A program made the translations under genes and the position numbers. DNA of 54,757 bases, taken from a virus. Taxonomy: Duplodnaviria > Caudoviricetes. The notes below the pieces were generated by a model, which was not told where the DNA came from, did no database searches, and saw nothing but the letters and a program-made list of their open reading frames with translations. Of this stretch, positions 1,175 through 39,027 are shown piece by piece; positions within the stretch are counted from its first letter, which is position 1, and every line of letters begins with the position of its first letter. The DNA lies in IMG/VR virus record IMGVR_UViG_3300032270_000402, positions 1 to 54,757 of that record; one strand, given 5' to 3'.

Positions 1175-2740
1175 ATGGCAGCAGCTATCGACACAGCGGC
1201 TCTTAAGGCGCGAGTACAGTTTGAGGTAGACCGGCGCAGAGCGTCGGCCTCGCTGTATGAGTTCGTCAAGCAGGCGTGGCCGATCGTCGAGCCCGGCGCC
1301 GAGTTCGTCGATAGCTGGCACATCCAGACCATCTGCGAGCACCTCGAGGCCATCACCAGCGGCGAGCTGCGCAAGCTGCTGATCAACATCCCGCCACGTC
1401 ACTCGAAGTCGACCATCGTCAACGTGATGTGGCCGACGTGGGAATGGATCGCCGACCCGAGGCACCAGTACCTCACCGCATCGTTCAGCGGCCCGCTGTC
1501 CATCCGCGACAACCTCAAGGCCCGACGACTGATCCAGTCACCGTGGTACCAAGAGCGATGGGGCCATCTATACCAACTGGCAGGCGATCAGAACGCCAAG
1601 CAGCGATTCGAAAACGATCACATGGGACACCGCATCGCGACCTCAGTAGGCGGTACGACCACCGGCGAAGGCGGTAGCCGACTGATCCTCGATGACCCGC
1701 ACGGCGCGCAAGAGGCGCAGTCCGATGCGATGCGAGACGCGGCGCTGGAATGGTTCGATGCCGCATGGTCAACCCGTCTGAACAATCCCAAGACCGACGC
1801 GATGGTCGTGGTGATGCAGCGCCTGCACGAGCTGGACGTGAGCGGCCACATACTCAACGACCTATCAGGCTGGGAACATATCTGCATCCCTGCCGAGTGG
1901 GACGGCGTCAAGCGCAAGACCTTCCTCGGCAACTACGACCCGCGCACCAAGAAGGGCGAGCTCATCTGCCCCAACCGATTCGGGCCCGATGAAATCGCCA
2001 ACCTCAAGCAGATCCTCGGCACCTATGGCGCCAGCGGCCAGCTGCAACAAGATCCGACACCGGCCGAGGGCGGTATCCTCAAGGCCAAATATTTTGAGAT
2101 GTGGCCAGCCGATCAGGAGCTGCCGCCGTTCATGTACATCCTGCAGTCCTATGACTGTGCCTTCACCGAGAAGAACACGGGCGACCCGACCGCGTGCACG
2201 GTCTGGGGCATCTTCCAGCACAAGGGCAGGCGCAACGTGATGCTGATCGATGCGTGGGACGAGCACCTTGGCTATCCCGACCTGCGGCGCAGGGTGATAC
2301 AGGACTGGACGACCGAGTATGGCGGTGGCGGCAAGTCACTGCACCGCGGCCGACGACCTGACCGCATCCTGATCGAGGCGAAGGCAAGCGGCCAGTCACT
2401 GCTGCAGGATCTGCGTCAGGCCAATGTCCCTGCCGTGGGCTACAACCCCGGCAATGCCGACAAGATCTCACGCGCGCACCAAGCGGCGCCCACGCTGGAG
2501 ATGGGACTGGTATGGATACCTGAGTCCAAGAAGAACGATCGACACCCGGTCAGCTGGGCATCGGCATTCATCAAGCAGGTGGCCAAGTTCCCAGTGGCCG
2601 CGCACGATGACTACGTGGACACGTTCACGCAGGCAGTCATCTACCTGAAGGACGATGGCTGGTTCGAGCTGCCACGGGCGCGCGACATTGACGAGCCCAA
2701 GCCCTACAGCAAGCCGCTGATCAACCCTTACGCGATCTGA
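1175..2740 (+). CDS. terL: Terminase large subunit
   Basis: Walker A-like NIPPRHSKST, Walker B LILDDPH, VVVMQRLHE..D, nuclease QSYDCAF and C-terminal FPVAAHDDYVD. Confidence 0.95.
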   Translation: MAAAIDTAALKARVQFEVDRRRASASLYEFVKQAWPIVEPGAEFVDSWHIQTICEHLEAITSGELRKLLINIPPRHSKSTIVNVMWPTWEWIADPRHQYLTASFSGPLSIRDNLKARRLIQSPWYQERWGHLYQLAGDQNAKQRFENDHMGHRIATSVGGTTTGEGGSRLILDDPHGAQEAQSDAMRDAALEWFDAAWSTRLNNPKTDAMVVVMQRLHELDVSGHILNDLSGWEHICIPAEWDGVKRKTFLGNYDPRTKKGELICPNRFGPDEIANLKQILGTYGASGQLQQDPTPAEGGILKAKYFEMWPADQELPPFMYILQSYDCAFTEKNTGDPTACTVWGIFQHKGRRNVMLIDAWDEHLGYPDLRRRVIQDWTTEYGGGGKSLHRGRRPDRILIEAKASGQSLLQDLRQANVPAVGYNPGNADKISRAHQAAPTLEMGLVWIPESKKNDRHPVSWASAFIKQVAKFPVAAHDDYVDTFTQAVIYLKDDGWFELPRARDIDEPKPYSKPLINPYAI

Positions 2741-3312
2741 TGGCTTACCTGTACCGACTGACCTCGCCCTCGGGCAAGAGCTACATCGGTATCGCCAAAG
2801 ACTACCGCCGACGCTGGACGATTCACCGCTACCGCGCCAACCGCGACGCGCAGGGCGCGCTCTACGCCGCCATACGCAAATACAAATGGGAATCATTCTC
2901 ATCTACAATTCTGGCCATCGGTAGCTTTGAGTATGTCAAGGAGATGGAGGTCAAGGCTATTGCCGCCTTCAACACGTACCAACCGCATGGCTACAACCTG
3001 ACCCGTGGCGGTGACGGGGCGACAGGGCGACCGACGCCCAAGGCGGTGCGTGACAAGATCGCCGCAGGCAACCGTGGCAAGGTGATGACCGCCGCCTCAC
3101 GCAAGAAGCTATCCATCGCGCGCAAGGGCGGCACCGTATCGAAAGAGCAGCGCGCCCTGATCAGTGTCAAGATGAAGCAAGTGTGCGACGCCGAGTGGCG
3201 CAGGCGCAGGGCAGAGACACAGCGCAGGCTGTGGGCAGATCCTGAGTACCGTGCGATGATGCTTGCCAAGCGCAGCGATCGTGCGCTAAAATCCAGCAAA
3301 CCTGCGCCCTAA
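2740..3312 (+). CDS. Free-standing GIY-YIG homing endonuclease with NUMOD3-like DNA-binding repeats
   Basis: YLYRLTSPSGKSYIG...RRW..H, E..AI, GYNLTRGGDG, then R.KI/LS...G repeats; coupled to the terL stop by a TGATG overlap. Confidence 0.85.
   Translation: MAYLYRLTSPSGKSYIGIAKDYRRRWTIHRYRANRDAQGALYAAIRKYKWESFSSTILAIGSFEYVKEMEVKAIAAFNTYQPHGYNLTRGGDGATGRPTPKAVRDKIAAGNRGKVMTAASRKKLSIARKGGTVSKEQRALISVKMKQVCDAEWRRRRAETQRRLWADPEYRAMMLAKRSDRALKSSKPAP
3263..3292 (+). promoter_or_regulatory. Possible sigma70 promoter for the polyvalent-protein/portal genes
   Basis: TTGCCA-N18-TAAAAT inside the 3' end of the GIY-YIG gene. Confidence 0.4.
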
Positions 3313-3327
3313 CCCCACGGTGCCTAC

Positions 3328-6300
3328 ATGGCCGACGCCCCTCCCAAAACCAACATCCGAGACCGTGGCGTTCTTGCGAACCTGCTTGACTTCAACAAGA
3401 TGCGCGATGATTCCGCCGAGGTTGGCAATGCATTCTTCAACAAGAGCACCGAGCACAACGGCCCGTCCGACGCGATGCGTCATGTGATCTTCAACGCCAA
3501 GCTGACCACTGGCACGGGCTCGCGCTTCATCCCGTGGCTATTGGATAAGTTGCACGAGTACGGCGAGACTGCCGCTGGCCAGCCGCGTGCTGAGATGGAG
3601 ATGGACTTGGCGAATGGTGAGCTAGGCCGTGAAATCGGGAAGCTAGGGCTGAGCGATGCGGAAATGGTTGACCTTGCGCAGCGTGCGGTGCAAGGCGGCA
3701 AGGCCGTGTACATGACCAAGCCACCGCAGAAGACTGACTACGCAACCGGCGGTGAGGTGGACACCGAGCCGACCGATCTTGAGCAGGCAGTGCAGGAGCA
3801 GTTCGGTCTTGAGCCCAACCTAGACCGCGCGACACTGCTCCCGTACAAGAGCAAGGACAAGGGCTGGATCGCGCCAGAGGCGCTATACCAAGCCGCCAAG
3901 TTGGTCGCCTCACCGATCACCGCATTGCACGGCAAGTACATATCACCCGAAGAGACGGTCGAGGGCGCGCTGACACTGGGCAGTCCGAGCACCGCCGCTG
4001 GGCTGGTCTCCAAGGCCGAGCCCGGCGTTGCGCGCATGTTCATCGGTCAGAATTCAAATGCATGGGATACTGGCTCACACGCGCTGGCGCTGAAGATGGA
4101 AGACGAAGGCGCAAGCCCGCGCACGATCTGGGAGCAGACCATGAACTGGCGCACGCCAGAAGGCAAGTGGGCGCAAGAGATTAGTGACAAGGGCGCCGTA
4201 TACACGCCAGAGAATGCGCTCGACATTGCAAAAGAAAAGTACAAGAAAGCAACCACTGACATCAAGGCGCGAGCCAAGCAATATCAAGAAGCGCGCGACA
4301 TCAACTTGATGTACAGGGGGCTGCTACAAGATGAGCCCAATCCGTTTGTGCATACGCACACTGAAGGGCCACTAGCAGGCCAGCGCATGCTGCATCCGCA
4401 AACGGGAATGCCAATGATCAAGGAAGGCATGGAAGATGCCTATACAGAATTTAACTCTGCGCTTAAAGATAAAGCGATTCAGAAGTATTCAGAATCAACT
4501 GGCAAGCCAGTCTCTGAGGATGCGCGCTGGATCTTTAGAACGACACCGCTGTGGCAGATTGAAGATGCAATGAGCACCACACCGGCAAGCATTGGTCTTG
4601 TTCGTCCGAGCAAGACGACAATCAGGGACAGCACTGTCGGCAGCACGCTTGAGCATCCTGAACTGTACAGCGCCTATCCTCGTATGGCGAACTATCCTTT
4701 TGACCTACGCGTCAAAGGACAGATGAGCGGATATGCTGCATCGTTCAATCCGTATAGTCGAAAAGTGACCTTATCGGCCGCTTCAAAAGAGCCAACAGCA
4801 TCTATGCTGCACGAGCTGCAGCACGCGGTGCAGGAGCGTGAAGGATGGGAAGGCGGCGCAAGCACAAGTCAATTTTCTCACTTAAACCCAAGCATGGCCA
4901 TGCAGCTTTACCTGCGTAATCTAGGCGAAGGCATGGCGCGCGCCACCGAGGCGCGTAAAGATCTGACGATGGCGCAGCGTAACGCAATCTTCCCTGCCGA
5001 ATCATTCTCATTGCCGAATGTCAGCCCATCTACCACGATGGAGCAGTTTATGTGGCAGGGCATGGATCCCGCCAAGAGATCTTTGATCCTGAAGTATCTC
5101 AACAACAACATTGACGACCTGACATGGAAAGCGCGTATGACAGGCAAGGATGTGGACATCCCGCTGGCCTATGATCCAGATAAGGTCAGCTCGATTACTG
5201 ATAGCCTGAAGGCTGAGATGGCCGAGCCTAAGCCTAAGTTTGCAGAAGGCGGCGAGGTAAGCCTGCCACCCGTGCCGACATTGAACGATGCGCCTACTGA
5301 GTACCGCCAGCGCAAGGACACGCTCAGTGACAAGCTGACCGACCTGAGCATTGGTCTGGGCGAAGGATTAACCAACCAGCTCAAGGGATATTCCGAATTG
5401 ATTGAGCGTCCTATTGACACGGGCAAGGCCATGTACCAAGGCTTGAAGGCTGTGATCAACGATCCATCGGTCATCAAGGATGCGCTGCAGAGCATAGCCA
5501 CCAAGGCAACAGAGTCCCCAGTGGGACTGGGCACGGTCATTGGTGAGAATATCAGCCCAACTGGTTTGGCCAAGCGACTGGCTGGTGTGGGCAAGCCTGT
5601 GCTGAAGGAGCTGACCGTTTATCACGGATCACCGCATACATTTGAGCCTACGCCTAACAATCCTTTGGGTGAGTTCACCGCCAATAAGATTGGAACGGGA
5701 GAGGGCGCACAATCTTATGGCCACGGAATTTATGTAGCCGAAAATCCAGATGTAGCCAAAGGCTATCAGTTTATGGAGAAAAATTGGTTCGATACGGACG
5801 AGGCAACCTACAATGGCAAGTCAATCCAGCATTGGTATGATCAGGCGCAGAAAGATCAAGACCGCGCACACCGTCTAAATAACAAAGCAATGATCAATGA
5901 TGCCAATGCAAAGTTGGCATTCTGGGAAGACATCATGACGCACACTCACCCTGAAAAGGCCGTGAACACGATGCTCAGTCCAGAGTATGACTGGCCAGAG
6001 GCGGCTAAGTTTGCCAAGACCATCAAGCTGGATAAGTTCAAGGGCATACCAGAACCCGGTAATTTGTATACTGTAGATCTGCCTGACGAACACATCGCGC
6101 GTATGCTGGACTGGGATAAGCCGTTGAATGAGCAGCATCCTCATGTGCAGAATGTTATAAAAACAGGAATCTCTGCTGATGCTTTTTATAATCTTGGAAT
6201 CACTAATGATTTCAAAGATGCTTATAACGGGAAAACATTAACCGGAGGGGATCTGGTTGGATTCATGGGAAATCAATTTGATAAAAGCAACGCATCCGCT

Positions 6301-6528
6301 GTTCTTCGAGGTGCAGGCATTCCCGGCATCAAGTATTTGGATGCAGGATCAAGAGACAAGGCAACGGGCACGCGCAACTTCGTCATGTTCCCCGGCGAAG
6401 AGCACAATCTAAAGATACTGGAACGCAAAGCCAAAGGAGGCCTCGTTGCGCAACCGTCCAGTATAGAGTATGATTCGTCAAAGGTACAGTCCATCGTGGA
6501 TCAGCTACGTCAGGAAATCCATGCCTAA
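3328..6528 (+). CDS. Large polyvalent protein: DUF6973/Wnt-like domain + LPD23 + HExxH metallopeptidase + ADP-ribosyltransferase-like domain
   Basis: DAMRH...HE...MDLAN...GR; IWEQTMNWRTPEGKWAQEISD; HPELYSAYP...LHELQHAVQEREGW...GE..AR; YHGSPH...GTGEGAQSYGHGIYVAE...GIPGIKYLD...NFVMF. Confidence 0.75.
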   Translation: MADAPPKTNIRDRGVLANLLDFNKMRDDSAEVGNAFFNKSTEHNGPSDAMRHVIFNAKLTTGTGSRFIPWLLDKLHEYGETAAGQPRAEMEMDLANGELGREIGKLGLSDAEMVDLAQRAVQGGKAVYMTKPPQKTDYATGGEVDTEPTDLEQAVQEQFGLEPNLDRATLLPYKSKDKGWIAPEALYQAAKLVASPITALHGKYISPEETVEGALTLGSPSTAAGLVSKAEPGVARMFIGQNSNAWDTGSHALALKMEDEGASPRTIWEQTMNWRTPEGKWAQEISDKGAVYTPENALDIAKEKYKKATTDIKARAKQYQEARDINLMYRGLLQDEPNPFVHTHTEGPLAGQRMLHPQTGMPMIKEGMEDAYTEFNSALKDKAIQKYSESTGKPVSEDARWIFRTTPLWQIEDAMSTTPASIGLVRPSKTTIRDSTVGSTLEHPELYSAYPRMANYPFDLRVKGQMSGYAASFNPYSRKVTLSAASKEPTASMLHELQHAVQEREGWEGGASTSQFSHLNPSMAMQLYLRNLGEGMARATEARKDLTMAQRNAIFPAESFSLPNVSPSTTMEQFMWQGMDPAKRSLILKYLNNNIDDLTWKARMTGKDVDIPLAYDPDKVSSITDSLKAEMAEPKPKFAEGGEVSLPPVPTLNDAPTEYRQRKDTLSDKLTDLSIGLGEGLTNQLKGYSELIERPIDTGKAMYQGLKAVINDPSVIKDALQSIATKATESPVGLGTVIGENISPTGLAKRLAGVGKPVLKELTVYHGSPHTFEPTPNNPLGEFTANKIGTGEGAQSYGHGIYVAENPDVAKGYQFMEKNWFDTDEATYNGKSIQHWYDQAQKDQDRAHRLNNKAMINDANAKLAFWEDIMTHTHPEKAVNTMLSPEYDWPEAAKFAKTIKLDKFKGIPEPGNLYTVDLPDEHIARMLDWDKPLNEQHPHVQNVIKTGISADAFYNLGITNDFKDAYNGKTLTGGDLVGFMGNQFDKSNASAVLRGAGIPGIKYLDAGSRDKATGTRNFVMFPGEEHNLKILERKAKGGLVAQPSSIEYDSSKVQSIVDQLRQEIHA

Positions 6529-9500: not shown

Positions 9501-9899
9501 ATGAAAAACCCCGCGCTTGAAGAAGCGTTTCCCGTGTGCGACCCCGGTGTTCATCCGCTTGGCTCGCGAATCCTAGTCCAAATCAGAACGCCTGAGACCA
9601 AATCAAAAGGCGGCATCATCCTCACCGAAAGCGATAAAGACACGCAGATGTGGAACACCACAGTTGCCAAGGTTATTGCGACCGGCCCACTTGCCTTTCA
9701 CAACCGCGACACATTGAAGCGTTGGCCAGAAGGCGACTGGTGCAAGCAGGGTGATTATGTTCGAGTCCCCAAGTACGGCGGTGACCGATGGGTCACGACC
9801 AACAGCAAGGGCGAGAAGGCTTACTACATCCTGATCAATGATCTGGACGTACTGGCACTTGTGACAACCGATCCGCTTGAACTAAAAGCGTTTTTCTAA
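9501..9899 (+). CDS. groES: GroES/Cpn10-like co-chaperonin
   Basis: HPLGSRILV...KSKGGIILT...AKVIATGP...GDYV..PKYGG...ILINDLDVLA. Confidence 0.85.
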   Translation: MKNPALEEAFPVCDPGVHPLGSRILVQIRTPETKSKGGIILTESDKDTQMWNTTVAKVIATGPLAFHNRDTLKRWPEGDWCKQGDYVRVPKYGGDRWVTTNSKGEKAYYILINDLDVLALVTTDPLELKAFF

Positions 9900-9911
9900 C
9901 CGAGGTGTATC

Positions 9912-10847
9912 ATGGCAAGAGATGAATTACTGACAGAGTCAGATGAGAATGAGAATCACAATGAGAATGATTCTCAAGAAGAATTGGTCATTGTCGAGGA
10001 CAAACCCGATGATGAAGATGATGAGGTTGTCTCTAGGCAGTCTGCCGATGACGATCAAGACAATAATGACGACGAACGTGCCGCGATTCGTGAGCGACGC
10101 CGTAAGGAAAAGCTTGAACGTAAAGAGCGCAAAGAGAAGGCCATCACCCGCGATAAGCTAGAGCTGGACTTTCTACGTAAGCGCAATGATGACCTTGAGC
10201 GTCGCGTATCTGTTCAAGAGACACGCGCCTATCAAAGCGACCTCAGCAACATTGATGCTCACTATGCGCAGGCAAACAAAGAAGTGCAGATGGCCGAGCG
10301 CGTGATTGCACAGGCAGTCGCAGCCGGTAATGGTGACGATGTCGCTCAGGCATTGCGCTATCGTGACGAGGCCATGGCCAAGGCGCATCAATTAGCTCAA
10401 TACAAGCAACAAGCCTCACAACAGCCTGCGCAACAGTCTGCTGTGGATGACATGATGATGGTGCATGCTAAGGAATTCTTAGCAGACAACCCATGGTATG
10501 ACATCAATGGCGGCGACGAAGACTCGGCAATTGTGATGGCAATTGACCGCACCATTGCAAAAGAAGGCCTCGACCCTCGATCTGAAGAGTACTGGGATGA
10601 GCTACGTGATCGCGTCGCCAAGCGCCTGCCGGGTAAGTTCGGCAAGCAGTCGGCACCTGCGCGCACTCCGCGCGGCGGCCCTGCTGTCGGATCGGGCAAG
10701 GAGCATGCGCCTACGTCCACTCGCAAGGAGATCTATATCTCCCCAGAGCGTAAGCAAGCCCTTGTAGATGCTGGTGTTTGGGACGATCCAGTGCTTCGCA
10801 TGAAGTACGTCAAGCGGTACGCCGCTTACGATCGCGACAAACGGTAA
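9912..10847 (+). CDS. Putative capsid scaffolding protein
   Basis: Acidic N-terminus, long charged coiled coil, NPWY motif; upstream of the capsid genes. Confidence 0.6.
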   Translation: MARDELLTESDENENHNENDSQEELVIVEDKPDDEDDEVVSRQSADDDQDNNDDERAAIRERRRKEKLERKERKEKAITRDKLELDFLRKRNDDLERRVSVQETRAYQSDLSNIDAHYAQANKEVQMAERVIAQAVAAGNGDDVAQALRYRDEAMAKAHQLAQYKQQASQQPAQQSAVDDMMMVHAKEFLADNPWYDINGGDEDSAIVMAIDRTIAKEGLDPRSEEYWDELRDRVAKRLPGKFGKQSAPARTPRGGPAVGSGKEHAPTSTRKEIYISPERKQALVDAGVWDDPVLRMKYVKRYAAYDRDKR

Positions 10848-10858
10848 ATGCGAATCAT

Positions 10859-10888
10859 TTGCATTACCACTCTCATTTGTGTTATAAC
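10859..10888 (+). promoter_or_regulatory. Sigma70 promoter for capsid genes
   Basis: TTGCAT-N18-TATAAC with TGTG just upstream of the -10. Confidence 0.6.
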
Positions 10889-10896
10889 TTGTAGCA

Positions 10897-10914
10897 ATTG
10901 CTGAAAGGAGCAAT
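10897..10914 (+). promoter_or_regulatory. RBS hairpin (copy 2)
   Basis: ATTGCT-GAAAGG-AGCAAT. Confidence 0.5.
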
Positions 10915-10917
10915 ATT

Positions 10918-11448
10918 ATGTCAGACGAACGCTTAAAGAAATCCGCTGGCGAAGGCCGCGACAGTCGTGTGATGAAAGATCGCGCAGTGACTGAAAATCG
11001 TGCCCTTAGCGATGAAGATCGGGTTGCAATGTTCCGTCAACAGTTTTTTCAGTCCAGTTTACCGGACTTGCCTAAGATCCCCGGCTGGCACATGTGCTGG
11101 CTAACCACGACTAACCCTCGTGATTCCATCCAGACGAGAATTCGTCTGGGCTACGAGCCTGTAAAGCCGGAAGATGTCCCCGGCTGGGAATACGCCACAC
11201 TCAAGACGGGTGACTGGGCAGGCTTCATTGGGGTGAACGAGATGCTTGCGTTTAAGTTGCCGATCTCATTGTACGAAATGTACATGAAGGAAGCACATCA
11301 CGATGCGCCGCTGCGCGAGGAAGAGAAGCTGACCGATACGGCTGAATTCCTTGAGGAGCAGGCAAAGGCATCTAAATCGCGGCTGACAATGGGTGATGGG
11401 CACGCCGAAATTGGACAGCAACGGAAAGCTCAGTTTGATCTTTCCTGA
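10918..11448 (+). CDS. Hypothetical head-module protein
   Basis: AGGAG RBS; LPDLPKIPGWHMCWL...GYEPV motif; lies between scaffold and capsid genes. Confidence 0.75.
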   Translation: MSDERLKKSAGEGRDSRVMKDRAVTENRALSDEDRVAMFRQQFFQSSLPDLPKIPGWHMCWLTTTNPRDSIQTRIRLGYEPVKPEDVPGWEYATLKTGDWAGFIGVNEMLAFKLPISLYEMYMKEAHHDAPLREEEKLTDTAEFLEEQAKASKSRLTMGDGHAEIGQQRKAQFDLS

Positions 11449-11476
11449 TTTAACCCATTAACCATTAGGAGCTACT

Positions 11477-12088
11477 ATGGCCTCTGTTAGCGCACCTTTT
11501 GGCTTTCGTCCTTCTTTCCACAACAGTGGACAGATTCGGCCGAAGGCCTATGTGATCGCTTCGGGATACGCCACAAGCGTATTCTCTGGCGACCCCGTGA
11601 AACTCACCGTCAACGGCGTTGTGCAACTTGGCACTAGCGATGGCACCCGTTCGGGTACTGCTGCTGGCGTTCAATTGCTTGGCGTGTTCCAAGGCGTTGA
11701 GTACCGTGATTCAACCGGCAAACCAACCATTTCCCCATTCTGGACTGGCAGCACGTCTGTCTATAACAGCGATGGTGCAACGGCTTGGGTGTTGGACGAT
11801 CCTGAAGCAATCTATGATGTTCAGTACACAAATCCGGGCACTGTCGGTACCACCAGCATGCAAGTTGCTGTTGGCCAGCAATGTGACTGGGTTGTTGCAA
11901 GTCCCGGCGGCTCTACGGCCACTGGTATTTCCAGCACTCAACTGAGCGCCATTCAATCCGGTACTGGCCAGTTCCAGATCACTGGGTTCCAAGGCAACAT
12001 CAACGATTCCCTGACAGATGCTTACGCTATTGTGACCGTTCGCTTGAACGAAGCTCAATACAAGTACCCTGTTGCGGCTCCAGTCTAA
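11477..12088 (+). CDS. Putative head decoration/minor capsid protein
   Basis: APFGFRP N-terminus, FSGDPV, GVFQGVEY, DDPEAIY; beta-rich; immediately upstream of the MCP. Confidence 0.6.
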   Translation: MASVSAPFGFRPSFHNSGQIRPKAYVIASGYATSVFSGDPVKLTVNGVVQLGTSDGTRSGTAAGVQLLGVFQGVEYRDSTGKPTISPFWTGSTSVYNSDGATAWVLDDPEAIYDVQYTNPGTVGTTSMQVAVGQQCDWVVASPGGSTATGISSTQLSAIQSGTGQFQITGFQGNINDSLTDAYAIVTVRLNEAQYKYPVAAPV

Positions 12089-12107
12089 CTAGAGGAGGCT
12101 AACTTAA

Positions 12108-14628: not shown

Positions 14629-14637
14629 GGAACAGTC

Positions 14638-15078
14638 ATGAAAGGCCCTAAATACGTCAAAGACTTTGACTTTAACGAAAAACCCTGCAACTACAGCTAC
14701 GGCGGCGATGTAAAGATGGCCAGCGGTGGCTATTACGCAAAGGGCGGAAAAGTCTCCAAGATGGTCAAAAAAGAAAGTGTCGCCACGCCGACAATGCGCA
14801 AAGAAGAATCAGTGCGCAGAGTCTCTGTGAAGGCGCCTGCTCGTAAGAGCGTTCCAGTGGCACCATCGCAGCCTATCCTATCTCGTCTCGCAGCAGCGGC
14901 AGCGCCAGAGGCTCCTATGGGACTAAAGAAAGGTGGCATGGCTAAGGTTGGCAAGGTGATGGGCGAGTTTAAGGCAGGCGAGCTGCACTCTGGCAGCAAG
15001 AAAGGGCCTGCAGTGACCAGTCGCAAACAGGCCGTGGCGATTGCGCTCTCTGAGGCGCGTAAGGGCAAGAAGGGCTAA
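14638..15078 (+). CDS. Basic protein with AxGG repeats and a C-terminal DUF6496-like domain
   Basis: YSYGG, MASGG, YAKGG, LKKGG; KVGKVMGEFKAGELHSGSKKGPAVTSRKQAVAIALSEARK. Confidence 0.7.
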   Translation: MKGPKYVKDFDFNEKPCNYSYGGDVKMASGGYYAKGGKVSKMVKKESVATPTMRKEESVRRVSVKAPARKSVPVAPSQPILSRLAAAAAPEAPMGLKKGGMAKVGKVMGEFKAGELHSGSKKGPAVTSRKQAVAIALSEARKGKKG

Positions 15079-23472: not shown

Positions 23473-23488
23473 ATACGAGGAAATTGAA

Positions 23489-23839: not shown

Positions 23840-23884
23840 TTTTTACAACCCGCCGAGTAATCGGCATTTAATTTGGAGATTACA

Positions 23885-24106: not shown

Positions 24107-24108
24107 TC

Positions 24109-24453: not shown

Positions 24454-24458
24454 CCATT

Positions 24459-31821: not shown

Positions 31822-32051
31822 GGATCAGCGTCACGCTTCCTACGAACATGCAGGTACGTGACTGGGCTGATCAGATCGCGCTTGACTTGGATCCATATGG
31901 CGCCTTTGGCCGGTTGGATGATGAGAATCGATGGCAGGATTGGGCGATGCAGTTCTTAAACAACACATCCCTTAAGAACAACTTCCCTATTCCGTATAAT
32001 TTTGACAATTGGAAAGACTGGGCAGAGCGATTCTGCGAAGTTTTGGCATAG
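31818..32051 (+). CDS. Trp-rich hypothetical protein
   Basis: ATGA overlap; W.DWA repeats. Confidence 0.7.
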   Translation: MRISVTLPTNMQVRDWADQIALDLDPYGAFGRLDDENRWQDWAMQFLNNTSLKNNFPIPYNFDNWKDWAERFCEVLA

Positions 32052-32062
32052 AGGGTATTACG

Positions 32063-34819
32063 ATGGCATTTCTTCCTCCGCGCATAAATCAGATGCAACG
32101 TCCAATGCAGACGATGCAAAGGACTATGCAGCCTATGATGCCCGTGCAGAATCGCATGCAGGCTCCTGCACGAATGCAGCAGTTTTCTTCTCCTGCGGGG
32201 CAGGCACCGCTGCCCAATCCACAGGCTATGCCTCCTATGTTGCAACCTGCTCAGCAGTCGCCTTTAGCCCCGCAACAACCTATGGGGCAGATGGGGCAAC
32301 TACCTACCGGCATAGATCCCCGTGCCGTTGCTGCTAACCCTTCTGGATTTCAACAATGGCAACAACAAGCATTAGCGCAAGAAGCTGCTATGCCCGGCTC
32401 TACTATGTTTGCCCCGCAACAACCTGCGGGACAGATGGGGTTAGGTGGATTGGGTCAAGGCATGGGCGCACTGCCCCCACAAACTGCTGCAAATACACAA
32501 AATATGGCTCCTATGCTGCAACAGTATTTAGCATCTGGTAATCAACAATCAGCATTGCAACAACCTGCGGGGCAGATGACCGGATGGACTCCAGCAAATC
32601 AAATGCCATCTTCGCAAAATTTGGCAACACAAGGTATTACTCAACAACAATTACAAGCTATGCCTACAGCACAAAAAGCATACGCCGAAGGCGGCGCTGT
32701 AAACGCTCCCAGCCCGCAGGCGTGGATGCCTCCTCCTAATCGATTGCCTATGATGCCGCCACAGCGGCCAATCGGTCAGATGCCTCCACAGGGTATGCCG
32801 CAGCAACCTCCAATGGGGCAGATGCCGCAACAGATGCCAATGGGGCAGATGCCTCCTCAGATGCCACAACGATTTGCTGTTGGTGGTTCAGTTACGCCAA
32901 TGCCAACCCAAGATCAATTGGGAGGAACACAGATCGCGCCTGTGCGGCAGCATGCACAAGGCGGAATGCATCATGATACTTCCAGCACGCCTGTTGATGA
33001 TCAGATGCTTGCCCAGATGCAAAAAAATCCACAATTTGATCAAGTGATTTCCGCTACTCATGAGCAAATGGGAAATATTCCTCTTGATGCGCTCAATGAG
33101 CTGATCAAGATGGTTCGGTTTGCAATGCTTCATCCGAAAAAGTATCCAGAAATCCGTGCTGCGGCAATTAGAGATCATATGGTTGAGCCAGATGATATGC
33201 CTGAGCAGTTTGATGTGCAGTTCTTGGCCACTATGCTTTCAACAATGGTAGCACTAAAAAAACGACAAGAGGCCAAGGGCAAAGAAGGATTTGCAAGTGG
33301 CGGCTTGGCATCAGCTGCAAAACAATTGCAAGCAAAGGGTCGGTACCATGACACGATACTGGCTCACATTAGCCCGCAAGAGGCTGCGATGTTGCGCGCA
33401 AATGGTGGCGCTGGGACAATTAACCCTGCCACGGGGCTGCCTGAATATCTCAGTTTCAGCAGCGTATGGAAAGATATTAAGAATGCCGCAAAGATCGTTG
33501 CCCCAATTATTTTGACTGCATTAGTACCTGCTGCCGGTGCGTATTTAGGTACATTTTTGACCGGCACACTCGGCGCTACTGCAGCAGGCATTGTCGGCAC
33601 TACATTAGCAGGTGGATTGGCAGGTGCAGCTGGCGCCGCTATTCAAGGTACCGATATTGGTAAGGGCGCAATTTTCGGTGGTATCACCGGTGGTCTTGGT
33701 GGCGCTCTTGGCGCCGGGGCAAATGCTCTGGGTAAAGCCGCTGGTTTGACTAAGGGGCTTAGCACTGCCGCGCAAGGATATATTGGCGCAGGATTGGCGG
33801 GCGCAGGCGCCGCTAAACTAACCGGTGAAGACTGGAAACAGGGCGCGCTTAAGGGACTGGCGTCACGTTACGTCTCTAACAAGTTGCAAAACTTCGCGCC
33901 CGTGAAGAGTGCCAATGAGTGGATGCAGGGCAAGGTTGCGCAGCTGACCCCGCCACAATCTACGCCTGCTATGGAGGCAGTCAATTCACTAAAGGACGCT
34001 GGATTTGAGGGAAATACTTTTGTCGCAGGGCAGCAAGTTGACCCCGCTACTGGGGAGGTTTACAAGCCAAACATTGAGGCTGCATCCACATACACTAGCC
34101 CTGATGGCATGCCTAATCTTGATGCAAATGGCAATCCGGTTGTGGAGACGGGTGGGCGTTATATCAATCAAGGCCCAACGGCAGCTGCTGGTACGCCAGC
34201 CGCTCCTGCAGCGCCTCAGACGCTCGCAGGCAAGGCTATGGATGCCGTTGGCTCTGGTCTGCAGACCTCTGCGCTAGTCGGCGCTGTAGGCCTGCTAAGC
34301 GGTTCTGGAGCACCTCCTCCGCCAGCTGTAGAGGCTATCAAGACATTGTCACCTGAGCAACAGGCATACTTCAATCGACCTACGGTGAGACTTGACTACA
34401 ATCGCATGATGCAAAACGCAGCAGCGTCGGGCATGAGTCTCGCGCAATTTATGAATCAGAACTGGAGCACTATTCAGGGCGGCGCTTATAACGTCGCAGA
34501 AGGTGCCGCACCTCCAACGCCAAAGGCACGCGGTGGGCAGGCATATGCCACTGGCGGCGCGCTGTCAAAGATGGCATACTTGGCGCAGGGTTCTGGCTCA
34601 GGTCGTGCTGACACGATTGACGCCAAATTGTCTGATGGCGAGTTTGTTGTTGATGCCGAGACAGTTGCCCTGCTGGGAGACGGTTCCACCAAAGAAGGTG
34701 CACGCCGACTGAATATGATGAGAGAGCAGCTACGTCAACAAAAGGGTGCGGCGCTCTCAAAAGGTAAGTTCAGTCCTGCGGCCAAGTCGCCGCTGGCATA
34801 TATGGCAGGTGCACGATAA
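32063..34819 (+). CDS. Internal virion/ejection protein with Q/P/M-rich N-terminus, six AxGG motifs and a C-terminal G.G..D.I.A.LSDGEFV domain
   Basis: GAGG RBS before the ATG at 32063; DTILAHISPQEA...GTINPATGLPEY; G/A-rich hydrophobic helices. Confidence 0.65.
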   Translation: MAFLPPRINQMQRPMQTMQRTMQPMMPVQNRMQAPARMQQFSSPAGQAPLPNPQAMPPMLQPAQQSPLAPQQPMGQMGQLPTGIDPRAVAANPSGFQQWQQQALAQEAAMPGSTMFAPQQPAGQMGLGGLGQGMGALPPQTAANTQNMAPMLQQYLASGNQQSALQQPAGQMTGWTPANQMPSSQNLATQGITQQQLQAMPTAQKAYAEGGAVNAPSPQAWMPPPNRLPMMPPQRPIGQMPPQGMPQQPPMGQMPQQMPMGQMPPQMPQRFAVGGSVTPMPTQDQLGGTQIAPVRQHAQGGMHHDTSSTPVDDQMLAQMQKNPQFDQVISATHEQMGNIPLDALNELIKMVRFAMLHPKKYPEIRAAAIRDHMVEPDDMPEQFDVQFLATMLSTMVALKKRQEAKGKEGFASGGLASAAKQLQAKGRYHDTILAHISPQEAAMLRANGGAGTINPATGLPEYLSFSSVWKDIKNAAKIVAPIILTALVPAAGAYLGTFLTGTLGATAAGIVGTTLAGGLAGAAGAAIQGTDIGKGAIFGGITGGLGGALGAGANALGKAAGLTKGLSTAAQGYIGAGLAGAGAAKLTGEDWKQGALKGLASRYVSNKLQNFAPVKSANEWMQGKVAQLTPPQSTPAMEAVNSLKDAGFEGNTFVAGQQVDPATGEVYKPNIEAASTYTSPDGMPNLDANGNPVVETGGRYINQGPTAAAGTPAAPAAPQTLAGKAMDAVGSGLQTSALVGAVGLLSGSGAPPPPAVEAIKTLSPEQQAYFNRPTVRLDYNRMMQNAAASGMSLAQFMNQNWSTIQGGAYNVAEGAAPPTPKARGGQAYATGGALSKMAYLAQGSGSGRADTIDAKLSDGEFVVDAETVALLGDGSTKEGARRLNMMREQLRQQKGAALSKGKFSPAAKSPLAYMAGAR

Positions 34820-36309: not shown

Positions 36310-39027
36310 ATGGGTTACGAATTACAGAAGCTGCAGAATTTATATGGCGTCAGCGATCCGACGTTGAGCTATATGGGCACGGCAATGCCTGTACGTCCAA
36401 CCGCGCCTACGGCATTGAAGTCTGGCGCTACAGCTGATGAGCAGACTGCGTATAACAAATCGATTGATGCATATAACACTGGTTTAGCCAATTACAATAC
36501 CAATTTACCTAAGTATCAAGAAGATCAGAAGCTCTATAATCAGTATCGTGATCTTTATTCTCAGCGTATGCTGGGCACAAAAATGTATGACCCTGCTGCC
36601 AATCGGCAGTTCTTAAGTGGGCCAGTTTACTCTGGCGCAGATGCAAATCTAGCAGCCGCTCCGCGTTACACTCAGAGCGTAATGCCAGCCAGTCAAGAAA
36701 CATTGCCAACTTTAGTTAGCAAGTACGCGACAGCAGGTGTGCCCGCAACAGGCGGCACGACTGATGGTACATTGTCACATGTCACCACAACTCAGGCACA
36801 GGCACAGGCGCAATATGATGCTGATTTAGCGGCCTACTTGAATACGTGGAAAGCTGCGCATCCATCCCCCATATTAGGAGGAACAACCGCTCAAAACGCA
36901 GCTGCAGAAGAATGGAAAGCACAACATCTATTCGGTCAGGGCAATTATGCTTACGGAGCGACAACCAGTGGCACGACTGGAGGCACGACCGGCGGCACGA
37001 CCGGCGGCACGACTGATGGCACATTGTCACACGCTGGAATGACACAGGCGCAAGCGCAGGCATTATATGATGCGGATAAAGCGGCCTTCTTGCAAAATTA
37101 TGGCCTTTACAATCCTGCGCCCAGTACCTCGTCTGTATATATTGCGCCGCAGACGTTGAGATCACAATTAGCAACGTATGGTGCCGCACAAAATCTCGCT
37201 TTAAGTAAGTGGCAGTCACTCAATCCATTTGGCCAAGGTAAATATATTTATACTTCAGCAACCGGTGGCCCTGTCAATCTTGCGCACGGCGGTCTTGCCA
37301 ATTTATCGCACAAGTATGCTGCAAAACAAGGCATGAATGACTTTTTGCATCCTGAAGAGGCCAAGGCGCGACAGGAAGCAGAAGCAAAAGCACCAGCAGA
37401 GGCACAAGCTAAGGCACAAGCAGATGCTGCTGCCGCTGCAGCTGCCGCTCAGCAACCGCCTGCGCAAGTAGAACAACCACCTGCACAAGTGACACCACCA
37501 GAACAAGTCGTTGTCCCACCATTGGGCGGCGTCACGGCAAAGCCTGCCACTCCTGCGCCGGACTTAGGCGCTAATACACCGCTGCCATTGAAGCCTGCGG
37601 TGAGTGCGCCTAATCCTAATGATCCTGTGGTCTCAGCGATTCGCTCAATGCCTACAGGCACGATGACCGCGCCTACAGTATCGACCAATCCATTGGCTGA
37701 CATGTATAGCAAGTATCAGTCAGTTGCCGCTGATCGTAACGCAACAGCCGCTCAGCAACGCTGGCAGGCTGATCGCAATAACTACATCCGTTCAATGTAT
37801 GGTCTAGGTACGTACACGCCTGATGCGGTCACGCAATGGGAAGCACAGAACGTGATCGGGCAGGGCAAATACAAATATGCCACTGGCGGCGCGGTAAAGA
37901 CCAACTATGCGGATGGAGATTCAGTGCAGACAGGGGCCGACACACTGCAGGCAATCATGGACGGATACATGGGCCAACAAGTTGAGCCTGCTGAAATTAA
38001 AACAGCTCGTGAAAAAGCAAATGCAGATACTCAGGCATTTAGTGATTTGCTGACCAAGTCAACTAGCCAAGAATACAAGCCAGATAAATCTGAAATGTAT
38101 TTCCGTTTGGCTGCTGCCTTCTTGACCCCCGGCAAGACTGGGTCTTTTGGCGAGGGTTTGGGACAGGCTGGCGCTGCAATGGCTGACTATACCAAGGGCG
38201 TGCGTGAAGCTAAACAAGCACAAGATCTGCGCAATGTACAATTAGGCTTAGAGGGTCAAAAACTTAAGATGGCAGCATCTAAGGAAGATCTATCTAGTCA
38301 ACTGGCATTGTACAAGCAAGATCAGTCCGACAAGCGCGCCATCATGAGCAAATTGATTGAGCAAGAAATTGCCTCTGGCAAGCCACAAAGTGAGGCGGGC
38401 AAGCAGGCTGCGGATGAGGGATTGACTCCCGGCACTCCTGACTACACGGCGCGAGTTAAAGCAATAGTCAATGAAAAACTTGCAGCAAGTGCTGACAGGC
38501 TCAATGCTACATTAGCTAATTACCAATCTGCTGGCGCATTACGTGATGCCCAACTAACGGCTTTGCTTAAAAAGCAAGGGCAATTGACACCTGCAGAAAT
38601 GCAGCTTAAAGATACGTCTCGTTCTCTGTTAAATTCATATGACCAATCTCTTTCTATGTTGACCAAGGTATACGAATTGAACAAGAACGCTTTTGGTGGC
38701 ACAAAGGCTGAGCAGGGGCAGCGATTGCTGTTAGATCAAACAGGATCAAAAGATCCGAAATTATTGAACACAAAAGAATTGGAAAACTTACTTGGCTTGG
38801 ATACTGTCAATCAGTTAAAAGCAACTTTCGGCGCTCAATTCACTGCAGCGGAAGGTGCCAAGTTGGAAGCATTGCGCGGTATCAACGCAAAGACAACCGA
38901 AGAACGACGTCGAATCATTATGGATGCTTACCAGTTGCTGAAAGACAAAAAGGCGCGCGAAGAGCAGCACTTTAATGATATTAGCCAAGGCCTCTATTCC
39001 AGAATTGACCAGCCGGAACTTCAATAA
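36310..39027 (+). CDS. Internal virion/ejection protein with internal repeats and AxGG motifs
   Basis: Three W....FGQG.Y.Y repeats, a duplicated GGTTDGTLSH block, AAFLTPGKTGSFGEGLG and a helical C-terminus. Confidence 0.6.
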   Translation: MGYELQKLQNLYGVSDPTLSYMGTAMPVRPTAPTALKSGATADEQTAYNKSIDAYNTGLANYNTNLPKYQEDQKLYNQYRDLYSQRMLGTKMYDPAANRQFLSGPVYSGADANLAAAPRYTQSVMPASQETLPTLVSKYATAGVPATGGTTDGTLSHVTTTQAQAQAQYDADLAAYLNTWKAAHPSPILGGTTAQNAAAEEWKAQHLFGQGNYAYGATTSGTTGGTTGGTTGGTTDGTLSHAGMTQAQAQALYDADKAAFLQNYGLYNPAPSTSSVYIAPQTLRSQLATYGAAQNLALSKWQSLNPFGQGKYIYTSATGGPVNLAHGGLANLSHKYAAKQGMNDFLHPEEAKARQEAEAKAPAEAQAKAQADAAAAAAAAQQPPAQVEQPPAQVTPPEQVVVPPLGGVTAKPATPAPDLGANTPLPLKPAVSAPNPNDPVVSAIRSMPTGTMTAPTVSTNPLADMYSKYQSVAADRNATAAQQRWQADRNNYIRSMYGLGTYTPDAVTQWEAQNVIGQGKYKYATGGAVKTNYADGDSVQTGADTLQAIMDGYMGQQVEPAEIKTAREKANADTQAFSDLLTKSTSQEYKPDKSEMYFRLAAAFLTPGKTGSFGEGLGQAGAAMADYTKGVREAKQAQDLRNVQLGLEGQKLKMAASKEDLSSQLALYKQDQSDKRAIMSKLIEQEIASGKPQSEAGKQAADEGLTPGTPDYTARVKAIVNEKLAASADRLNATLANYQSAGALRDAQLTALLKKQGQLTPAEMQLKDTSRSLLNSYDQSLSMLTKVYELNKNAFGGTKAEQGQRLLLDQTGSKDPKLLNTKELENLLGLDTVNQLKATFGAQFTAAEGAKLEALRGINAKTTEERRRIIMDAYQLLKDKKAREEQHFNDISQGLYSRIDQPELQ
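36970..37022 (+). repeat. 12-bp tandem repeat (GGCACGACYGRH x 4.4)
   Basis: Encodes GTTG/GTTD units. Confidence 0.85.

Follow-up and report, generated by a model that had tools for sequence, protein, structure and literature searches.

A predicted three-enzyme polyvalent protein with conserved seam peptides in the terminase-portal slot of an uncultured tailed phage

The question raised by this locus is what kind of protein lies between the terminase and the portal of the phage, how it is built, and where it acts. The window is the whole IMG/VR virus record IMGVR_UViG_3300032270_000402 (54,757 nucleotides, CheckV completeness of 100), which derives from an uncultured phage. The initial annotation had placed an open reading frame at 3328-6528 between these two head genes; that is its position, with a GIY-YIG endonuclease gene also beside terL. 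The genes of the slot are:

1175..2740, + strand: terminase large subunit gene terL, the left anchor of the slot (phrog_38, E 3.2e-89; Pfam Terminase_6C, E 5.1e-9)
2740..3312, + strand: GIY-YIG homing endonuclease gene, between terL and the polyvalent gene (Pfam GIY-YIG, 23.7 bits with a cut-off of 22.6; phrog_314, E 2.2e-24)
3328..6528, + strand: polyvalent protein ORF P0001, 1066 aa
6521..9103, + strand: portal gene, the right anchor of the slot (phrog_1216, E 1.7e-16)

The longest portal frame opens at 6470, and an ATG at 6521, read directly from the sequence, has AGGAA before it and overlaps the stop of the polyvalent gene as ATGCCTAA, so the portal gene may be translationally coupled to the polyvalent gene. 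The GC content inside the polyvalent gene goes from 0.62 down to 0.46. The single 1066-aa frame contains unrelated domains of the effector type (DUF6973/lipocone, HExxH zincin-like, and ADP-ribosyltransferase [ART] folds), and we regard it as very probably a polyvalent multienzyme protein, as Iyer et al. 2017 use the term, in a variable slot. It would fill a hypervariable cargo slot running from terL to the portal. Its parts are:

3328..3738, + strand: module 1 (aa 1-137), DUF6973 lipocone/Wnt-like five-helix domain (Pfam PF22322 and fold matches)
3739..3753, + strand: seam tag 1, YATGG (aa 138-142) then EV (model residues 132-148, pLDDT < 50)
3754..4035, + strand: linker 1 (aa 143-236), conserved leader that moves together with the tag (duplicated with the tag in relative P0008)
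4036..5238, + strand: module 2 (aa 237-637), LPD23-like segment (aa 237-290) plus HExxH...E zincin-like metallopeptidase (profile, motif, and model)
5170..5220, + strand: YDPDKVSSITDSLKAEM helix, first copy of Y-D-x-x-K-V-x-S-I, immediately 5' of tag 2 (model helix 617-632)
5239..5253, + strand: seam tag 2, FAEGG (aa 638-642) then EV (model residues 634-660, pLDDT < 50)
5254..5604, + strand: linker 2 (aa 643-759), conserved leader found 5' of module 3 elsewhere (tblastn)
5605..6426, + strand: module 3 (aa 760-1033), ART-PolyVal-type ADP-ribosyltransferase fold containing helical inserts (model and fold matches)
6427..6441, + strand: seam tag 3, KAKGG (aa 1034-1038) then LV, a variant in which K takes the place of the aromatic residue (model residues 299-309, pLDDT < 50)
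6469..6525, + strand: C-terminal YDSSKVQSIVDQLRQEIHA helix, the constant tail (A, GG, V, and Y invariant in the A5 alignment)

Every motif marked in the initial annotation was recovered at its position, and profile and fold searches gave lipocone/Wnt-like, zincin-like, and ADP-ribosyltransferase matches for modules 1, 2, and 3, in keeping with the three enzymes it had proposed. Module 1, with DAMRH at aa 48-52, LHEYGE at aa 75-80, and MDLAN at aa 92-96, matches PF22322 (DUF6973) over aa 20-120 with 34 bits, above the gathering cut-off of 27, and its ESM Atlas features are DUF6973 and SAA clusters. The best structural match in VIA-align was BteO (9uu0_B, Z 11.4 over 122 aa, rmsd 4.0), followed by WNT8A (7kc4_D, Z 8.4 over 121 aa) and WntD (Z 6.3), while the SAA3 match in Foldseek was weak (E 1.9); helical folds score high by chance, so these matches argue moderately for a Wnt/SAA fold. 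BteO itself is described in PMC12541434 as a nonenzymatic binder of OmpA. The model has helices at residues 22-36, 46-63, 67-82, 87-104, and 110-122, and His52, Glu77, and Asp93, which are kept in relatives P0005-P0013, sit on successive ones. A lipocone domain of this kind (Min-Wnt/SAA-like) would be expected to attack phosphate-linked lipid head groups.

The other two predicted enzymes are an LPD23-like segment with a zincin-like metallopeptidase and an ADP-ribosyltransferase of the H-Y-D type. The first segment of module 2, starting at nt 4036, scores 24.5 bits against LPD23 (Pfam PF18838), below the gathering cut-off of 27, so we call it LPD23-like; the aligned segment exceeds the cut-off in P0019 (68.7 bits) and P0010 (29.5 bits), and P0005 and other relatives carry a precomputed PF18838 annotation. 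Farther on, HELQH (nt 4810-4824) introduces the predicted zincin-like set His495, Glu496, His499, and the downstream Glu ligand Glu534, and H495, E496, H499, G533, E534, and R538 are nearly invariant in an alignment of 25 sequences. The model of this module has a pLDDT of about 85-98 across aa 240-600. DUF6782 was matched in Pfam with an E of 0.037, and the fold matches were weak: a search with the whole 660-aa model returned PprI (Z 5.8), anthrax lethal factor (5.1), VgrG2b (5.0), and 6mdx (4.4), values of 5.0-5.8 being within the range that VIA-align terms common.

Module 3 contains YHGS (nt 5620-5631) and TRNFVMF (aa 1015-1021), and was modeled with a pLDDT of 85 and a pTM of 0.75. Its top solved match in VIA-align comes from the pre-ejectosome of cyanophage A4 (9k3a_B, Z 10.8 over 153 aa, rmsd 3.3), followed by diphtheria toxin (Z 8.3, 127 aa, rmsd 3.8), tankyrase (7.3), PARP1 (6.6), ParT (6.6), and MbcT (6.4); the top 30 rows are mostly ART entries, including PARPs and ART toxins, and the best Foldseek match is to PE-like toxins (E 0.019). 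The module has no Pfam ART match of its own at E <= 0.01, and among the 89 sequences of its aligned family, 60 match PF18760 (ART-PolyVal; best E 1.7e-8) and 24 match DUF3990. The family is large, with 18,194 cluster representatives at E <= 0.001 and up to 8 copies per protein. The key residues are His766, Tyr802, Tyr813, and the candidate Asp1005. In the ART-PolyVal/Tox-ART-HYD2 pattern outlined in the text of PMC5512222, a His lies in strand 1, a Tyr in strand 2, and an Asp in strand 5; His766 (model strand 23-29) and Tyr802 (model strand 62-65) are conserved at the expected places, and Asp1005, conserved in at least 90% of the family, is a candidate, not aligned residue by residue, for the strand-5 acid. 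Asn1017 occupies the position of the Glu of PARP.

The modules end at short tags that follow the consensus K-[FY]-A-x-G-G-x-V, a pattern whose enrichment was 4- to 8-fold when two sets of relatives were counted. We counted 97 occurrences of [FYW][AS]xGG in 121 relatives (129,537 aa), where shuffles gave 11.7 +/- 3.4, and 90 in 137 family representatives (218,079 aa), where 21.1 +/- 5.0 were expected, so the tags noticed in the single protein are above the chance level in both sets. They are restricted by lineage, as only 36 of the 137 family representatives have one, and a single relative protein carries up to 9. Across 67 tags, K precedes the aromatic residue (position 0) in 28, Ala is at +1, and Val is at +6 in 49. 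The third tag of our phage, KAKGG, is aligned with [FY]AxGG in 13 of 14 other sequences of the A5 alignment, although K replaces the aromatic residue of the other tags. Codon choice varies between tags, which points to conservation of the peptide and not of the DNA. In both AlphaFold models the tags fall in low-confidence, disordered stretches, and of 186 internal ART-domain ends, 23 have a tag at -14 to +11 aa, with 2 more over the next 100 aa.

The adjoining sequences are also conserved. At 17 other loci, linker 2 has tblastn matches of 35-51% immediately 5' of module 3, and in P0013 it precedes a PcfJ-like block instead. The constant tail is 51-76% identical in P0011, P0012, and P0013 despite a different preceding module, and the last 60 residues contain 28 of 100 tags. 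We use the term cassette for what would be a domain that follows its conserved leader or linker and is closed by a K-[FY]-A-x-G-G-x-V seam in a disordered stretch; the sole constant part would be the C-terminal unit, a tag followed by a Y-D-x-x-x-V/I-x-x-I helix.

Seam tags also occur in several other late proteins of this phage, large and unrelated ones among them:

14629..15078, + strand: small basic protein frame with tags YSYGG, MASGG, and YAKGG and a C-terminal DUF6496 (sequence and profile)
32009..34819, + strand: late protein of 936 aa with four tags; after the fourth comes a tape-measure-like block, SDGEFVVD, at the C terminus (phrog_17300, E 1.2e-4 over aa 824-885)
36310..39027, + strand: 905-aa late protein with one YATGG tag (sequence)

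A further conceivable role for the tags starts from their likeness to another protein of the phage. The phage codes for its own Cpn10 (9501-9899; Pfam E 2.7e-11), whose loop ETKSKGGIIL resembles KAKGGLV, and the tags could mimic the GroES mobile loop and recruit host GroEL to the cargo proteins; T5 tail assembly also needs the host groE genes. The likeness spans just 4-5 residues, the GroEL-binding hydrophobic triplet is not kept (+5 is mostly E/A/L/S and +7 mostly K/S/A/E), and the conserved aromatic-Ala pair has no GroES counterpart, so that we find this mimicry barely credible.

The polyvalent ORF has 458 relatives with E <= 0.001 among 8000 candidates scored. Relatives keep the order terL-ORF-portal, with ORFs of 529 to 1868 aa. 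At all 28 loci whose portals are 67-71% identical to ours, the portal is adjoined by an ORF frame of 529-1639 codons with 1-7 tags, and terL is upstream wherever the contig extends that far. Modules 1 and 3 are absent from all 28 of these ORFs, and PcfJ-like blocks are present in 18. Nine further loci, found via module 3, have terL-to-portal ORFs of 537-1868 aa. In the closest relative (L002, with a 100% identical terL), aa 1-91 are exchanged for a 280-aa block that ends in YATGGSVIV and runs directly into DLANGEL, placing the swap junction right after a tag. In P0008, an inserted ART-PolyVal block is flanked on both sides by a repeat of the tag plus about 100 aa of linker 1 (93 of 109 aligned positions identical).

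The architecture of the ORF, whose invariance, together with absence from virions, the initial annotation had named as grounds against its own reading, thus varies. The swaps at AxGG junctions that it had anticipated do occur, several of them at tags, but not only there. The mosaic also has edges within modules, at nt 4196/4197 and 6149/6150, and homology breakpoints fall within 10 aa of tags in 12% versus 5%, only about a twofold enrichment and a count biased by the tag itself being a conserved island. Since related phages swap enzyme blocks, the protein looks like an exchangeable kit carried into the host, and its cassettes would be exchanged between phages. These junctions, and the position of the tags in disordered linkers at the joints, are also what would be seen if the tags had no recognition role and were flexible Gly-Gly hinges left over from cassette-shuffling recombination. 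A hinge, however, has no need of an aromatic residue (0) with K before it and Ala after it, nor of Val at +6; the tag codons differ, so DNA homology is not what is conserved; the motif is kept at the extreme C terminus, where nothing is hinged, and T5-like tape measures conserve it down to 37% identity. We consider this origin very unlikely.

As for where the protein acts, it is probably packaged in the virion or ejected, by analogy with gp27 of the A4 pre-ejectosome. The C-terminal unit could be the handle that takes the protein into the head beside the portal, and the protein would most likely be delivered with the DNA. Alternatively, it could be a late cytoplasmic protein involved in superinfection exclusion, late host takeover, or head assembly that is merely located between terL and the portal. 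Phage Min-Wnt domains, according to passages of PMC12419801, may limit superinfection, and no MuF domain was among the Pfam matches of the ORF at E <= 1. Yet the gene is inside the head-morphogenesis block and coupled to the portal gene, its tags recur in tape-measure-like and other large late proteins, an ART-fold domain is part of a solved pre-ejectosome protein, and packaging has been inferred for phage polyvalent proteins in such a context (Iyer et al., PMC5512222), all of which makes a purely cytoplasmic protein quite improbable. On balance, we lean toward a packaged, cassette-built polyvalent effector, a reading that requires no cleavage step.

Whether the seams are processing sites that separate the modules is a further point. 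We recognized no prohead protease in the head module, and the module 2 peptidase was matched in none of five near-complete tag-bearing relatives (a single-sequence search with no positive control), so if the seams are cut, this peptidase would not be the general cutter. The seams could instead stay uncut and act as short handles for docking or packing: a head component, a scaffold, or a chaperone would bind them, and the polyvalent protein and other cargo would thereby be loaded uncut into the prohead or remain threadable at ejection. The tags do behave as disordered linear motifs, found in unrelated late proteins and often (28 of 100) near the C terminus; the C-terminal unit stays constant while modules change, the polyvalent gene overlaps the portal start, and the N4 virion RNA polymerase is packaged unprocessed, as noted by Iyer et al. 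in the text of PMC5512222. One handle per protein would not explain a tag at nearly every module joint, with up to 9 copies, and in the tape-measure precedents the cut falls within the motif region or close to it, which leaves uncut handles somewhat unlikely.

Among known systems, the closest are the polyvalent proteins covered in PMC5512222, which likewise have several unrelated effector domains per polypeptide in portal-terminase phages, with LPD, zincin-like MPTase, and H-Y-D ART as a typical domain set. Packaging and autoproteolytic release have been proposed for this class (Iyer, Burroughs, Anand, de Souza, and Aravind 2017, PMC5512222). Particular to our phage are the fixed terL-portal slot, the lipocone/DUF6973 module, the conserved seam peptide, and the constant C-terminal unit, of which we found no mention in the main text of that article, supplementary lists aside; the word "linker" does not occur in its text, and the passages with "cleav" and "autoproteoly" name no motif. 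Module 1 resembles the lipocone SAA-Wnt clade in having a core of five helices, successive ones of which bear His, Glu, and Asp; in the clade pattern the conserved residues are His on H2, Glu on H3, and Asp on H4 (PMC12419801, section 7). As described there, SAA-Wnt domains are toxin tips in conflict systems, and some tailed phages encode Min-Wnt domains; DUF6973 is not named in the text, source-data tables aside. The difference is that here the lipocone-like domain forms the N-terminal part of a polyvalent protein.

The A4 protein gp27 (PDB 9k3a chain B), the top solved match of module 3, is a large podophage ejection protein with an ART-fold domain and is part of the solved pre-ejectosome inside the capsid, according to PMC12002296, whose available text does not mention ADP-ribosylation. 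It contains YHGT...GSGTYFS at residue 1425, within the range matched by module 3, with no detectable sequence similarity to the module. It differs in that its gene is in the ejection-protein cluster and not between terL and the portal, and the seam tags are absent from the A4 ejection proteins gp26-29. In adenovirus, ASFV, and poxviruses, structural or core polyproteins are cut at x-x-G-G motifs during maturation by a dedicated viral cysteine protease; we recognized none of this kind in our phage.

A parallel for the seams comes from tape measures, in which a C-terminal module is cut off (lambda gpH to gpH* plus gpHC, and T5 pb2 to pb2* plus pb2C). They have the A-x-G-G core in common with our tags, as FATGG (733) and YATGG (778) in gpH and RAEGG in pb2, and the 936-aa protein of our phage resembles them in having a tag and then a tape-measure-like GEFV block. 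Processing of gpH removes about 14 kDa of peptide from the C-terminal region, which is Gly-rich, with the site and the catalyst given as unknown in PMC12617516; residues 734-853 have a calculated mass of 12.5 kDa. The pb2 cut was mapped after R1127 (PMC10038345), where the site reads VPR|AEGG, and is disputed, as an earlier report had placed it after V1148 +/- 1 and trypsin, too, cuts at R1127 (PMC11937520). R-A-x-G-G is kept in four of four T5-like tape measures, down to 37% identity. These precedents differ in being tail proteins and not head cargo, and pb2 has R at the aromatic position. The mapped, if disputed, cut at R|AEGG weakly favors reading our seams as processing sites, and we take their cutting to be possible but short of probable. 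More broadly, tailed phages in general could use K-[FY/R]-A-x-G-G-x-V as a processing code: tape measures, like the cargo or polyvalent proteins carried in the head, would be cut there into their working parts by a protease not recognizably phage encoded, possibly of the host. We think this unlikely; if true, it would account for how gpH* arises, still called unknown in a 2025 paper, and effector boundaries could be read from sequence in thousands of uncultured phages.

Last, T4 Alt and the MuF-fused polymorphic toxins, as presented in PMC5512222, are enzymes, ARTs included, that are carried in the head and enter the host along with the DNA, with variable toxin domains on a constant head-incorporation part. 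T4 Alt differs in being an R-S-E ART, and the constant part of our phage is a C-terminal peptide of about 30 aa, whereas that of the MuF toxins is a folded N-terminal domain.

Together with its neighbours in the complete 54,757-bp virus (IMG/VR record), the polyvalent protein P0001 is coded in the following order:
1175-2740, large terminase (terL), upstream of the polyvalent ORF (phrog_38, E 3.2e-89)
2740-3312, + strand, GIY-YIG homing endonuclease, between terL and the polyvalent gene
3328-6528, + strand, polyvalent protein, 1066 aa
downstream of the polyvalent ORF, portal (phrog_1216, E 1.7e-16)
9501-9899, + strand, homologue of Cpn10/GroES, directly following the portal within the head module (Pfam E 2.7e-11)

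Position 6470 is the start of the longest portal frame; a further ATG, at 6521, is preceded by AGGAA. Because this ATG overlaps the stop codon of the polyvalent gene (ATGCCTAA), the polyvalent and portal genes appear to be coupled in translation. Directly 3' of the capsid gene is an HNH/endonuclease VII-like ORF (13097-13750, + strand), so that two homing-type endonucleases (2740-3312 and 13097-13750) are found within the morphogenesis block, where they may aid local mosaicism. GC content is 0.60 to 0.63 between terL and nt 4200 or so; beyond that it falls to 0.49, and to 0.46 to 0.48 in module 3, with the remaining head genes at 0.51 to 0.57. We also found, further downstream, a 2338-aa ORF (16456-23472, + strand) whose C-terminal part matches tail-fibre PHROGs, followed by fibre-like ORFs at 24459-26563. 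Among named phages, the first 12 kb had no megablast match, and tblastn returned only partial, distant matches, all below 60% identity. P0001 had no meaningful match in NCBIfam and none in a PDB sequence search, and a PDB search with an alignment profile (A2) retrieved only gp41 noise at E of about 0.04.

Every motif named in the initial annotation lies where it had been placed. Foldseek against the PDB returned nothing at E <= 0.001 for either AlphaFold model, and the structural matches below come from the VIA-align wide search used in its place. Module 1 (aa 1-137) is a Pfam DUF6973 domain (34 bits; cut-off, 27), which appears as a bundle of five main helices in the model of residues 1 to 660 (alignment of 25 rows; mean pLDDT 77, pTM 0.55). 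Its top VIA-align match is the Bacteroides T6SS effector BteO (9uu0_B; Z 11.4, 122 aa, rmsd 4.0), followed by human WNT8A (Z 8.4, 121 aa) and Drosophila WntD (Z 6.3), and its ESM Atlas features correspond to DUF6973 clusters (0.90) and serum-amyloid-A clusters (0.87 to 0.88). The lipocone pattern, as given in passages of the source paper, consists of His in H2, Glu in H3, and Asp in H4 (PMC12419801); His52, Glu77, and Asp93 of module 1 sit on successive helices and are conserved in relatives. As BteO is reported to be non-catalytic and to act through OmpA binding (PMC12541434), caution is needed with the predicted enzymatic role of module 1.

Module 2 (aa 237-637) had been annotated with an LPD23-like segment. 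The query itself falls short of the LPD23 cut-off (24.5 bits; cut-off, 27), but the assignment stands in the relatives P0019 (68.7 bits) and P0010 (29.5 bits). HELQH (residues 495-499) and Gly533-Glu534-Arg538 are near-invariant among 25 sequences, the model is at pLDDT of about 85 to 98, and the fold matches, although weak, are zincins throughout (PprI, Z 5.8; anthrax lethal factor, Z 5.1; VgrG2b, Z 5.0). From motif and fold we predict, with moderate confidence, a zincin-like peptidase. Stand-alone short forms number only nine, and a single-sequence search run without a positive control did not find the peptidase in five related complete tag-carrying genomes. IMG/VR relatives found by pattern search were likewise few (two loci for module 1, three for module 2).

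Module 3 (aa 760-1033) has no Pfam match in the query, but across an 89-sequence alignment from viral loci ART-PolyVal was matched by 60 sequences (best E 1.7e-8) and DUF3990 by 24. The model (pLDDT 85, pTM 0.75) retrieves ADP-ribosyltransferases at the top of the VIA-align list, namely, diphtheria toxin (Z 8.3), tankyrase (7.3), PARP1 (6.6), ParT (6.6), and MbcT (6.4); by fold, the module is of the proposed ADP-ribosyltransferase (ART) kind. According to passages of Iyer et al., polyvalent-protein ARTs carry His in strand 1, Tyr in strand 2, and Asp in strand 5 (PMC5512222). His766 and Tyr802 agree with the first two positions, and the conserved Asp1005 is a candidate for the catalytic acid; in hhalign of A2 with the relative P0008 the alignment was confined to the C-terminal tail (probability 23), leaving the catalytic Asp unplaced. 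The best structural match, at Z 10.8 (153 aa, rmsd 3.3), was chain B of the cyanophage A4 pre-ejectosome. This chain is gp27 (1717 aa) and contains YHGT...GSGTYFS at residue 1425, inside the range matching module 3:
20116-25269 of Anabaena phage A-4L (KF356198), minus strand, gene of the pre-ejectosome protein gp27

According to the A4 structure paper, which makes no mention of ADP-ribosylation or an ADP-ribosyltransferase-like domain, gp27 lies in the pre-ejectosome's outer layer (PMC12002296). The module 3 family comprises 18,194 cluster representatives (E <= 0.001); their proteins range from 288 to 7242 aa and show as many as eight matched stretches. Three giants of 5727 to 7242 aa (P0137 to P0139) have seven or eight stretches matching this family.

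The slot between terL and portal is fixed, and its content varies. Only two full-length collinear relatives were identified, P0005 (90%) and P0006 (79%). P0007 and P0010 retain modules 1 and 2, with PcfJ-like blocks at their ends. In P0008, module 1 is followed by an inserted ART-PolyVal block, and P0013 consists of DUF6973, linker 2 (aa 643-759 in P0001), a PcfJ-like block, and the same tail. At IMG/VR loci with portals 67 to 71% identical, a frame of 529 to 1639 codons ends at the portal in 28/28, with one to seven tags each; PcfJ-like matches occur in 18 of these frames and module 1 or module 3 in none. Four loci with portals 46 to 61% identical have slot ORFs of 507 to 534 codons without tags, and ten more distant portal loci had no slot ORF by the criterion used. 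Nine loci found via module 3 show the order terL-[537-1868 aa]-portal, with tags in five of the ORFs and none in the other four. A C-terminal unit, [FY]AxGGxV followed after a few residues by YDxxx(V/I)xxI, is common to these slot groups and often duplicated. In phages with portals about 70% identical (L105 to L154, e.g., L106:1498-4500), the first 100 or so residues of the slot protein form a conserved basic domain (...KIIRFGEQG...YWANKVKWADGG) that has a tag at its end, and similar ...KVKK[YF]AxGG N termini were seen in P0043, P0057, and P0122.

The swaps at AxGG junctions suggested by the initial annotation were found in relatives, and other breaks fall elsewhere. The closest relative, L002, has a terL identical in protein (97% in DNA) and a slot ORF of 1272 aa in which a 280-aa block, also the N terminus of P0009, P0012, and P0024, takes the place of the first 91 aa of DUF6973. 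The block ends in ...YATGGSVIV and is fused directly to DLANGEL, leaving a remnant of DUF6973 between two YATGG tags. The ART-PolyVal insert of P0008 is flanked by a repeat of the tag plus about 100 aa of linker (93/109 positions identical by direct alignment; self-BLAST for internal repeats returned nothing). A strict rule of swaps at tags alone is contradicted by the blastn mosaic against L002, which has further breaks within modules, at nt 4196/4197 and at 6149/6150, and by the GC content, which drops from 0.62 to 0.49 near nt 4200 and to 0.46 in module 3. Of 427 BLAST breakpoints, 50 (12%) were no more than 10 aa away from a tag; for random positions the share is 5%. This measure is inflated because the tag itself is a conserved island.

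The tag is enriched, as [FYW][AS]xGG occurs 97 times in 121 relatives (11.7 ± 3.4 expected) and 90 times in an independent set of 137 representatives (21.1 ± 5.0 expected). Only 36 of the 137 carry one, so the tag is a lineage trait. Non-redundant tags give the consensus K-[YF]-A-x-G-G-x-V (K at -1 in 28/67, V at +6 in 49/67), and a second motif, Y-D-x-x-K/R-V-x-S-I, stands before tag 2 (FAEGG) and after tag 3 (KAKGG). We counted tag positions for 232 ART domains with a complete C-terminal part, 46 of which end their protein; among the 186 internal ones, a tag was located between -14 and +11 aa relative to the domain end in 23, and the next 100 aa add only two more. As codons differ from tag to tag, it is the peptide and not the DNA that is conserved, and on the same ground we rejected the tags as a DNA-level recombination signal. 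Both AlphaFold models place the tags in disordered stretches. We consider it very improbable that the tags are plain hinges. Other carriers in the same phage are as follows:
14629-15078, small basic protein with two tags plus MASGG
25181-26563, ORF with one tag
32009-34819, + strand, 936-aa late protein with four tags and Pro/Gln/Met-rich repeats
905-aa protein with one tag
49338-49673, frame with YACGG, possibly a chance occurrence

The last tag of the 936-aa protein is followed by a block matching a tape-measure PHROG. In its C-terminal block, SDGEFVVD can be set beside HRGEFVFT of lambda gpH and GTEVVTP of T5 pb2.

Tape-measure proteins also carry the motif: lambda gpH contains FATGG at 733, YATGG at 778, and FSGGG at 848. 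A 2025 paper states that cleavage removes about 14 kDa from the Gly-rich C-terminal part of gpH and that both the precise site and the catalysis are unknown (PMC12617516); residues 734-853 compute to 12.5 kDa. For T5 pb2, a passage of Linares et al. places the cut after R1127 (PMC10038345), which in the sequence reads VPR|AEGGMMYPG, and R-A-x-G-G is conserved in 4/4 T5-like tape measures compared, down to 37% identity. A published reply counters that trypsin, too, cleaves at R1127 and that previous work had located the cut after V1148 ± 1 (PMC11937520); V1148 lies in GTEV|VTP, 21 residues beyond R1127. The exact bond is thus disputed in print, but either way both sites are inside the conserved block that starts with A-x-G-G:
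residues 1127-1151 of T5 pb2 (L181, NC_005859), conserved block RAEGG...GEHGTEVVTP

We tentatively read the tags as cut sites, at somewhat less than even confidence. Neither PHROGs nor Pfam revealed a prohead protease in ORFs 9501-13022 of this phage, and ORF 9912-10847 is scaffold-like at best, a weak lead. That the tags are instead uncut docking or loading handles seems to us unlikely. A complex prediction pairing the C-terminal tail (47 aa, alignment A5) with portal residues 50-745 (alignment A4) scored 0.00 and, being without controls, is uninformative either way. KAKGGLV resembles ETKSKGGIIL, the mobile loop of the Cpn10 that the phage encodes, and mimicry of this loop is a long shot.

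If the seam is a processing signal, as in the cut-site reading, or a loading signal, it would give a sequence rule for dividing giant proteins into testable effectors, a handle to load foreign proteins into phage heads, and a candidate solution to an old problem, the site and mechanism of tape-measure cleavage. Should it prove a hinge only, the locus would still be useful as a list of effectors that can be exchanged, with lipocone, zincin, ART, and PcfJ-like types among them. Of all phage weapons, polyvalent proteins are believed to reach the host first, and to our knowledge almost none has been put to the test. The terL-portal slot is a clean natural experiment in this respect, with a fixed position, conserved neighbours, a content that varies even with identical terminases, and blocks whose borders are readable.

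In the open-access literature, none of the papers listed for the literal motifs (YAEGG, FAEGG, YAKGG, FAKGG, YAxGG, and FAxGG) concerned phages, and we found no description of the seam in work on Gly-Gly processing or tape-measure cleavage sites and no report combining the seam peptide, the constant C-terminal unit, and a fixed terL-portal slot with cassette exchange. Compared with known systems, P0001 taken as one protein belongs to an established class, the polyvalent proteins, and its ART family is very common. What is new is the very recent swap in L002 with its junction at a tag, the positional statistics of tags at ART-domain ends, the structural tie of module 3 to a solved pre-ejectosome protein, and the comparison of the motif with the lambda and T5 cleavage literature, dispute included.
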